Below the pieces are notes generated by a model that saw only the letters and a list, made by a program, of their open reading frames with translations, made no database searches and was not told the DNA's origin. The position numbers and the translations under genes are program-made. 64,000 nucleotides of DNA, from the IMG/VR virus record IMGVR_UViG_3300025483_000873. One strand, given 5' to 3'. Source of the stretch: a virus. Below, in pieces: positions 10,666 to 12,388 of the stretch. Each line of letters opens with the position of its first letter. The stretch's first letter is position 1.

Positions 10666-10698
10666 CTAAATATAGATGGACCAACTATTTTTATTTAG
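10666..10698. promoter_or_regulatory. pair of late promoters, CTAAATA on + (10666-10672) and on - (10692-10698)
   Basis: T4-type late promoter cores between gp4 and gp54. Confidence 0.7.
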
Positions 10699-10699
10699 C

Positions 10700-11377
10700 G
10701 TGTCATTAGATACTTTCATACAGGCTATTGCTAAACGTGGGGGAATGTCTTTCTCCAATGGATATGATGTTGAGTTCTATGATTTCTCAACGCGATTATC
10801 AAATAATCTTGGAGATTTCATTGGCGCAGGTGGAACTGGAGATGAAACCAAAGCGGCGGGATTAGTTCAGATGCTTTGTGATGAAGCACAACTTCCTAAT
10901 GTACAGGCAGCCGTAGGACAGTTGAGTGGTAGAGTTATGGGAGAAAGTCAGATTAGTTATCCATATGCCAGATTTTACAGTGATTTGTCACTCACATGGA
11001 TGTGTGATGCTGAAATGATACCACTCAAATTTCTTAATACATGGCACTCTTTTATTTTCAATGGAAACAATTCTTCTCAAGATGGTCCTAAACCATCTGC
11101 TGCAGGATTGAAAAATATCAAGCAAGCAACTCCAAATGAGTTTAATAGGGCGATTAGATTGAACTATCCCGTAGAGTATATGTGTAAGTTGAGAATTAGT
11201 AAGACTGAAAAGGGAGCTGGTGCTCCTAATGAGAGATCAGCAGTATCCTATATTATGGAGAATATTTATCCTTATTCTATTGATTCTATTCCTTTATCTT
11301 ATGGTACTTCCCAGATCACGAAGGTAACCGCTAACTTCTACTATCAAAAACATACTGTTGTACACAGTAGGGTATAG
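10700..11377 (+). CDS. gp54: baseplate-tail tube initiator (gp54-like)
   Basis: LCDEAQLP...YPYARFYSDLSLTW...PYSIDSIPLSYG..ITKVTANFYY; GTG start preferred over ATG 10676. Confidence 0.7.
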   Translation: MSLDTFIQAIAKRGGMSFSNGYDVEFYDFSTRLSNNLGDFIGAGGTGDETKAAGLVQMLCDEAQLPNVQAAVGQLSGRVMGESQISYPYARFYSDLSLTWMCDAEMIPLKFLNTWHSFIFNGNNSSQDGPKPSAAGLKNIKQATPNEFNRAIRLNYPVEYMCKLRISKTEKGAGAPNERSAVSYIMENIYPYSIDSIPLSYGTSQITKVTANFYYQKHTVVHSRV

Positions 11378-11456: not shown

Positions 11457-11467
11457 CTAAATAAATA
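11457..11467 (+). promoter_or_regulatory. late promoter
   Basis: CTAAATAAATA upstream of gp26. Confidence 0.75.
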
Positions 11468-11489: not shown

Positions 11490-12203
11490 ATGGCATTACC
11501 AAAACTTGGCGTACCTACGTATGAACTTACGTTGCCTTCTACCGGGAAAACTGTAAAATATAGACCATTTCTCGTTAAAGAAGAAAAAGTACTACTTTTA
11601 GCATTAGAATCTGATAATGAAAAAGAAGTAATTACTGCTGTAAAGAACACACTGCGAGCATGTGTATTATCTAGAGTAAAAGTTGATCAACTACCATCAT
11701 TCGATCTGGAGTACCTATTTCTTAAGATTCGTGCTGCTGCTGTCGGTGAAGTTATCGAGATGACGGTAACTTGTAATGATGATAACGAAACTCAAGCAAA
11801 AGCATCAATCAATATTGATGAGGTTGAAGTGAAGAAAGATGATGAGCATAGTAGAAAGATTATGCTTACAGACGATATGGGGATTATGCTCAATTATCCA
11901 AGTATGGATAGATTTATTGAATCGCAGTTTCTCAACAAAGATTTAGATCCAGAGCATATTTTCAACTTTATTGCTGAACATATTGAGCAAATTTTTGATG
12001 GTGAAGATGTATATGATTCTACAACTACCACAAAGAAAGAGTTTCGTGAGTTTGTTGAGGGGTTGACTAGCAGACAGTTTGAAGAAATTCAAAAGTTCTA
12101 TGAGACTATGCCTCGCTTGACACACACATTTAGTGTGACCAATCCTAACACTGGTAATGAATGTGAGTATACTATTGAGGGATTGCAAAGTTTTTTCGCA
12201 TAG
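11490..12203 (+). CDS. gp26: baseplate hub subunit gp26
   Basis: MALPKL..PTYELTLPSTGK.VKYRPFLVKEEK...DLEYLFLKIRA...IEGLQSFF. Confidence 0.92.
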   Translation: MALPKLGVPTYELTLPSTGKTVKYRPFLVKEEKVLLLALESDNEKEVITAVKNTLRACVLSRVKVDQLPSFDLEYLFLKIRAAAVGEVIEMTVTCNDDNETQAKASINIDEVEVKKDDEHSRKIMLTDDMGIMLNYPSMDRFIESQFLNKDLDPEHIFNFIAEHIEQIFDGEDVYDSTTTTKKEFREFVEGLTSRQFEEIQKFYETMPRLTHTFSVTNPNTGNECEYTIEGLQSFFA

Positions 12204-12220
12204 CAGTCTTCCAGAATAGT

Positions 12221-12388
12221 TTGGAGGGCTATTACAAGACTAACTTTGCTTTGATGCAGTACCATAAATACTCTTTGACGGAGATTGAACACCTCATACC
12301 GTGGGAAAGAGAAGTTTATACTGCTCTTCTAATTCAACATATTCAAGAGGAAAAGAAAAAAGCAGAGGAAGCAAAGACTCGTAGATGA
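12221..12388 (+). CDS. gp51: short gp51-like baseplate hub assembly ORF (possibly made as a frameshift fusion with gp26)
   Basis: LEGYYKTNFALMQYHKYSLTEIEHLIPWEREVY; not in the ORF track; no clear SD/ATG start. Confidence 0.8.
   Translation: MEGYYKTNFALMQYHKYSLTEIEHLIPWEREVYTALLIQHIQEEKKKAEEAKTRR

Follow-up and report, generated by a model that had tools for sequence, protein, structure and literature searches.

The short open reading frame called gp51 lies, in the DNA analyzed here, in the -1 frame at the end of the gp26 gene and beyond it. The question raised by this locus is whether such a frame is a gene in its own right, or whether it is the second part of gp26, reached by ribosomes that slip back one base. 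The DNA is a stretch of 64,000 nucleotides from IMG/VR virus record IMGVR_UViG_3300025483_000873 (the window), and it belongs to a T4-like cyanomyovirus whose closest named relative is Synechococcus phage S-CAM3 (Kyanoviridae), with 84% nucleotide identity across the gp26 region. An initial annotation had proposed a programmed -1 frameshift of the lambda G/GT type at this place, and had suggested that the two annotated genes may be one recoded gene. The predictions that this proposal makes at the sequence level all hold. The preferred reading, to which a probability of about 0.85 is given, is that gp26 and the short gp51 frame are one recoded gene for two forms of a tail (hub) assembly chaperone.

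Frameshifting of this kind has been described before. A conserved -1 frameshift in tail assembly chaperone genes is credited to Levin et al. 1993 and to Xu, Hendrix & Duda 2004 (both as cited in PMC2147016). The tail assembly chaperones of T4-like phages were identified by Vladimirov, Gautam & Davidson (Virology 2022;566:9-15, as reported in PMC10885494 and PMC12846349). Poly-T slippery sequences at the ends of the TAC-N genes of T4-like phages are presented in PMC12846349 as -1 frameshift signals, and according to PMC10885494 a frameshift is lacking in some T4-like phages, which have a short gene and a longer fusion gene in its place. The gene family of the 2022 study is the same as that of the window and, on the account of the citing papers, so is the signal. 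Judged by these accounts, the frameshift idea for T4-like phages has been known since 2022, and the window is one more genome with the signal.

The features of the locus are collected in Table 1. The match of gp26 to PF12322 is full-length (profile positions 2-219 of 219, E 2.7e-70), and BLASTP aligns the protein to T4 gp26 with E 3e-5. The gene preceding gp26 encodes a tube-like protein, and genes in the equivalent position of Vibrio phage CZ01 and Pelagibacter phage Mosig are annotated as gp54-like tube initiators; a BLASTP comparison of the window protein with T4 gp54 itself gave no usable similarity (E 0.049). The gene that follows had been called tape-measure-like in the initial annotation. 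Its position, length and composition agree with that call, from which the 998-aa product is taken to be a putative tape measure; BLASTP found no similarity between this product and T4 gp29 (E 1.2), and no Pfam family was matched. Beyond close relatives of T4, gp29 is unrecognisable by BLAST (Hardies et al., PMC2147016). The order of tube-like gene (PF23849), gp26, -1 frame and long 998-aa gene was also found in Vibrio, Pelagibacter and Methylophilales phages, and it agrees with a chaperone role for gp26.

Table 1. Features of the gp26 locus, in window coordinates
Feature	Position	Strand	Basis
Tail-tube-like gene (gp54-like tube initiator), directly 5' of gp26	10676..11377	+	Pfam PF23849 Phage_TTP_2, E 1.3e-47; phrog_45 tail tube
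gp26, short chaperone form (TAC-N), 0-frame product, 237 aa	11490..12203	+	PF12322 T4_baseplate; phrog_150
Predicted recoded gene, gp26-51 fusion (TAC-NC), 299 aa	11490..12388	+	Inferred, -1 slip at 12191-12197
Slippery heptamer T TTT TTC (X XXY YYZ)	12191..12197	+	Read directly in the gp26 frame
-1 frame extension (annotated 'gp51', TAC-C part), 63 codons + TGA	12197..12388	+	phrog_634 'baseplate hub assembly catalyst', E 1.2e-26
0-frame stop TAG, one codon past the heptamer	12201..12203	+	Read directly; same spacing in 85/88 loci
Predicted stimulatory hairpin, core arms 12206-12213 / 12222-12229, 8-nt spacer	12206..12229	+	Fold
Tape-measure-like gene, 998 aa	12385..15381	+	ORF list; phrog_11440, function unknown

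Some further features of the surroundings may be recorded here. The TGA of the -1 frame overlaps the ATG of the 998-aa gene (ATGA, 12385-12388), and the 0-frame stop of gp26 lies 182 nt 5' of the same ATG; ribosomes that complete the long form could pass straight into the 998-aa gene through the overlap. The 848-aa gene after the 998-aa gene has a weak match to the same phrog_11440. A CTAAATA motif at 11457-11463, about 27 nt 5' of the gp26 ATG, resembles the late-promoter core of T4-like cyanophages.

The elements of the proposed signal can be read directly in the window. The gp26 gene ends in AGT (12189-12191), TTT TTC (12192-12197), GCA and TAG, and this sequence places the heptamer in the gp26 frame as had been claimed. 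The -1 frame is closed upstream, opens 22 nt before the gp26 stop, and reads CGC ATA GCA GTC TTC CAG... from 12197 to 12385, with its TGA at 12386-12388, so that it is open from the slip site onward as proposed. A slip at the heptamer would join 236 residues of gp26 to the 63 of the extension, in agreement with the length of about 299 aa and with the junction that had been predicted (...GLQSFF/RIAVFQNSLEGYYK). The hairpin also folds where it had been placed, 8 nt past the heptamer, and this spacer falls within the canonical 5-9 nt for a stimulatory RNA structure. It has 8-11 bp, being extendable to 12205-12215 / 12220-12230, with a centroid energy of -12.4 kcal/mol and an MFE of -16.8 kcal/mol for a 73-nt stretch. 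Taken singly, neither element is remarkable: the window has 18 copies of TTTTTTC where 17.3 are expected, and the stability of the hairpin relative to dinucleotide shuffles (z -1.34) is not significant by itself. The significance of the signal, which goes far beyond chance, rests on its conservation.

Conservation was examined in 88 loci, comprising the window, 80 IMG/VR contigs, three named cyanophages, two KVP40-like Vibrio phages, one Pelagibacter phage and one Methylophilales phage, whose gp26 proteins are 47-90% identical to that of the window. TTTTTT(C/T) stands at the gp26 end, in the X XXY YYZ register, in every one of these loci (88/88). The codon before the T-run varies (AGT, TCT, AAT, GAT, GCT, GGT) and ends in T in every case. 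TTC serves as the second Phe codon in 87 of 88 loci, against a share of 28% among the Phe codons elsewhere in these gp26 genes. Two of the more distant phages differ in their details: Pelagibacter phage Mosig (L087 2494-2528) keeps T TTT TTC and its 0 frame continues for 8 more codons to the stop, and Methylophilales phage Melnitz (L088 2492-2501) has a T8 run, with T TTT TTT followed directly by TAA.

A homopolymer at a break between two frames may also arise from a sequencing or assembly error, or mark a pseudogene, in which case the true gene would be a single in-frame ORF. A few metagenomic proteins do run in frame across the junction (P0121, P0122). The identical break, however, occurs in all 88 loci, which come from independent isolates as well as metagenomes, and contigs from independent DNA and RNA runs carry it too, without an indel. 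Among the best 120 gp26 homologues from a collection of 5.8 billion proteins, lengths range from 225 to 237 aa, with 118 proteins at exactly 237 aa and no in-frame fusion; the lack of any fusion-length protein among them indicates that the frame break is real. An error of this kind is hardly credible as the cause. When a profile of the tail alignment was searched, the best 150 matches were nearly all short ORFs. The longer in-frame proteins P0121, P0122, P0126 and P0162 were considered as natural fusions and set aside; their junctions are garbled and look like indel artefacts or chimeras.

The hairpin is maintained in a different manner from the heptamer. In the clade of the window (20 sequences), 96.9% of the cells of the 8-bp core are paired, compared with 43-76% in slid registers; one pair alternates between CG (13) and GC (5), and three further pairs switch between G-U and Watson-Crick. 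A sister clade (34 sequences) has a 9-bp hairpin at equal distance from the slip site and one nucleotide out of register with that of the window, with 88.6% of its cells paired versus 19-48% when slid. In one of its pairs, found as UA (18), AU (6) and GC (5), the third position of an Ala codon, where changes are synonymous, covaries with the second position of a codon lying 14 nt further on. The encoded residues at the hairpin are MAH...LES in the sister clade versus LF...LEG in the clade of the window, and the remaining clades have other local stems again. The hairpin thus shows compensatory changes in two clades, and other stems are found elsewhere. From these alignments, the kept feature appears to be structure rather than sequence, as expected of a frameshift stimulator. 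The arms of the window hairpin encode the conserved LF...LEG, and protein constraint could explain part of its conservation. All four of the environmental runs compared showed C>T at 12211 and G>A at 12238; the former change (TTC to TTT, synonymous in the -1 frame) converts a C-G pair of the hairpin to U-G, and pairing is retained.

These data also bear on slippage at the level of transcription, in which RNA polymerase would add or drop a U within the T-run and a subset of the mRNA would have the two ORFs in one frame. The site is indeed homopolymeric, with T6 in the window and T8 in Melnitz. Six T, on the other hand, is short for efficient polymerase slippage, and a process of this kind would require no fixed X XXY YYZ register, nor any covarying hairpin 8 nt past the site. 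Contigs of two metatranscriptome libraries from one sample span the site without an indel, as far as contigs, which display the dominant form only and may include DNA carried over, can be read in this way. Polymerase slippage is accordingly considered very improbable as the source of the fusion, and a slip of the ribosome accounts better for the register and the hairpin.

The short frame itself shows conservation that begins at the slip site. In the alignment the -1 peptide has conserved residues as early as codon 1, with R1, L9, Y12, N16 and F17 invariant or almost so, and the window frame also matches phrog_23772 (positions 190-241, E 0.046). The first ATG of the frame is codon 20 in 21 of 88 loci, namely the window and 20 others. 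It had been claimed that the frame has no good start of its own, and the relatives bear this out: apart from the late ATG, the TTG at 12221 sits within the hairpin and is CTG in S-CAM3, so it is not a conserved start. Since codons 1-19 are conserved and the first ATG is codon 20, independent initiation cannot yield the conserved N-terminal third in the clade of the window. As judged from the alignment, selection on the protein acts on the -1 frame of this clade from the slip site on, and the frame appears to be without a usable start of its own.

The same observations have to be weighed against an alternative in which the short ORF stands as a gene by itself. Its translation would then begin at a start of its own, or by termination-reinitiation past the gp26 stop; a free 'gp51' of 40-60 aa would be the only product, and the T-run would be incidental. 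Other clades offer some support for this alternative. In 55 of 88 loci an ATG stands at codon 4 of the -1 frame, a few nt past the 0-frame stop, and in the Vibrio phages an ATG stands at codon 3; many database gene calls begin at an ATG near the start of the frame, and GenBank annotates a separate gene. The 21 loci with a late ATG and conserved first codons nevertheless speak against an independent gene, as does the position of TTG 12221 and its replacement in S-CAM3, and reinitiation leaves an invariant heptamer in fixed register in 88 loci unexplained. T4, moreover, carries the homologous tail as part of one protein with a gp26-like domain.

The T4 genome has 26 and 51 as separate genes, neighbours transcribed divergently, in contrast to the single gene with a predicted -1 slip of the window. 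The gp26 of the window, T4 gp26 and T4 gp51 all belong to PF12322. T4 gp26 (208 aa) matches the family with E 8.8e-64, residues 1-201 of T4 gp51 (249 aa) cover the whole domain with E 3.9e-52, and the two T4 proteins align with each other with E 2e-6. The C-terminal 40 residues of T4 gp51 are matched by the -1 frame of the window (BLASTP, residues 212-249, E 6e-4). It had been remarked that T4 gp51 is much longer than the cyanophage ORF; this is so because it consists of a complete gp26-like PF12322 domain and the homologous C-terminal tail. In the window, the gp51-type tail becomes contiguous with the PF12322 domain only after the -1 slip. T4 gp26 retains the C-terminal GL..FF motif, and its gene ends in GAG TTC TTT GAG TTA CTA TAA, without a slippery site. 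By homology, the predicted cyanophage fusion appears to have its colinear counterpart in T4 gp51, and the short form to have its own in T4 gp26. T4 would thus encode the two chaperone forms as separate genes, with gp51 as the one-gene equivalent of the proposed fusion.

Both T4 proteins are listed as hub assembly chaperones in a review of the T4 tail (PMC3004832), in which gp51 is described as essential for assembly, of unknown function and not in the particle. A protein that is essential and absent from the particle fits a long chaperone form of low abundance. Taken together with the T4 proteins, the conserved first codons make an independent gene an improbable explanation of the short frame. 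Reinitiation may possibly serve as an additional route in the 55 loci with the codon-4 ATG.

That gp26 belongs to the tail assembly chaperones is also suggested by the predicted structure. AlphaFold2 gave a confident model (mean pLDDT 88.8, pTM 0.82) of the protein, and this model was aligned structurally (VIA-align, exhaustive) to 48,161 chains. The three best matches were 3klu (YqbN, Z 6.6), 2ob9 (the HK97 tail assembly chaperone, HK97 gp10, Z 6.5) and 3fgx (an uncharacterised B. stearothermophilus protein, Z 6.3), values that are modest, as the level regarded as safe on its own for this tool is 8. Each of these chains aligns 84-85 residues to residues 1-94 of the model, and the next unrelated chain scores Z 3.8. 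YqbN and 3fgx are presumably members of the same chaperone family as HK97 gp10. Foldseek found no match of the model in the PDB at E <= 0.001. The model comparison supports a tail assembly chaperone fold for the N-terminal ~90 residues of gp26, and the ranking is hard to ascribe to chance.

With the recoded gene as the preferred reading, expression of the locus may be pictured as follows. Most ribosomes would read AGT TTT TTC GCA and halt at TAG, producing the 237-aa TAC-N. The hairpin 8 nt further on would pause a minority of them, and these would move back by one base on T TTT TTC; both tRNA-Phe would re-pair on UUU UUU, and the -1 frame would be read for 63 codons. The result would be the 299-aa TAC-NC, joined at ...GLQSFF/RIAVFQ.... 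If lambda gpG/gpGT and T4 gp26/gp51 are taken as guides, the N-terminal domain common to both forms should hold the product of the next gene, the putative tape measure, and the C-terminal extension should dock the resulting complex to proteins of the tube or hub. Only small amounts of the long form would be required, and neither form would be left in the virion. A complex prediction for the tail peptide with the upstream tube-like protein scored 0.00, which is evidence neither for nor against binding.

A more elaborate scheme, which seems rather unlikely, is that the locus may yield three products in most clades (those 55 loci with the codon-4 ATG), that is, TAC-N, the frameshifted TAC-NC and a free tail peptide of ~60 aa made by termination-reinitiation. 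The hairpins, lying in clade-specific registers, would then set the product ratio. If this were true, the clade of the window, having lost the codon-4 ATG, would rely on the slip alone.

The predicted gene can be compared with the chaperones of lambda (gpG/gpGT) and P2 (gpE/gpE+E'). It has in common with them predicted nested products with a common N-terminus, a predicted -1 slip on an X XXY YYZ heptamer, a position between a tube-type gene and a putative tape-measure-type gene, and an N-terminal fold of the same class as HK97 gp10. It differs in that the slip site is one codon before the 0-frame stop, that a profile search of PDB sequences with gp26 returned chance-level matches only, so that no sequence similarity to solved structures was found, and that the gp26/gp51 proteins are known from T4 as assembly factors of the hub, not the tube. 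In addition, the gp26 of the window is about twice the length of lambda gpG, with an extra C-terminal half. Another parallel is found in Bacillus phage 0305phi8-36, in which gp143/gp144 form a two-gene tail chaperone (Hardies et al. 2007, PMC2147016). As with T4 26/51, the frameshift is replaced there by two genes with a homologous domain; this phage, however, is of an unrelated lineage, and the window retains the frameshift form.

The predicted frameshifted gp26-51 of cyanophages and the two genes of T4 explain each other. According to the papers that cite the 2022 study, this link has been in the literature since that year, and the scientific gain is accordingly small. The practical gain is in annotation. 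No ribosomal-slippage CDS was present in the public cyanophage records inspected, and the invariant heptamer with a stop one codon later provides a simple rule by which hundreds of Kyanoviridae and KVP40-like records can be corrected. In the S-CAM3 record, a 'gp51' of 37 codons is called from an internal start (L001 2357-2470), and further records likewise call a separate short ORF, whereas those of S-CAM1 and S-H9-1 have no annotation for the roughly 180 nt that separate gp26 from the following gene (L002 2289-2472; L003 2264-2438).

The C-terminal half of gp26 (window 11750-12200, residues ~87-237) has weak matches, with Z about 3, to zinc-ribbon proteins such as NrdR, ZPR1 and ZitP. CxxC-type motifs are found in the C-terminal half of T4 gp26, T4 gp51 and Vibrio gp26, and the cyanophage protein is without most of the cysteines. 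This suggests that the C-terminal half of cyanophage gp26 is a degenerate zinc ribbon. The fold of the gp26 model is also more widespread, since matches in BFVD show that it recurs in many large myoviruses that are not T4-like. Its carriers there include Bacillus SP-15, Campylobacter CP220, Ralstonia phiRSL1, Pseudomonas PaBG and an Ackermannviridae protein, and the fold is sometimes embedded in proteins of 380-670 aa.
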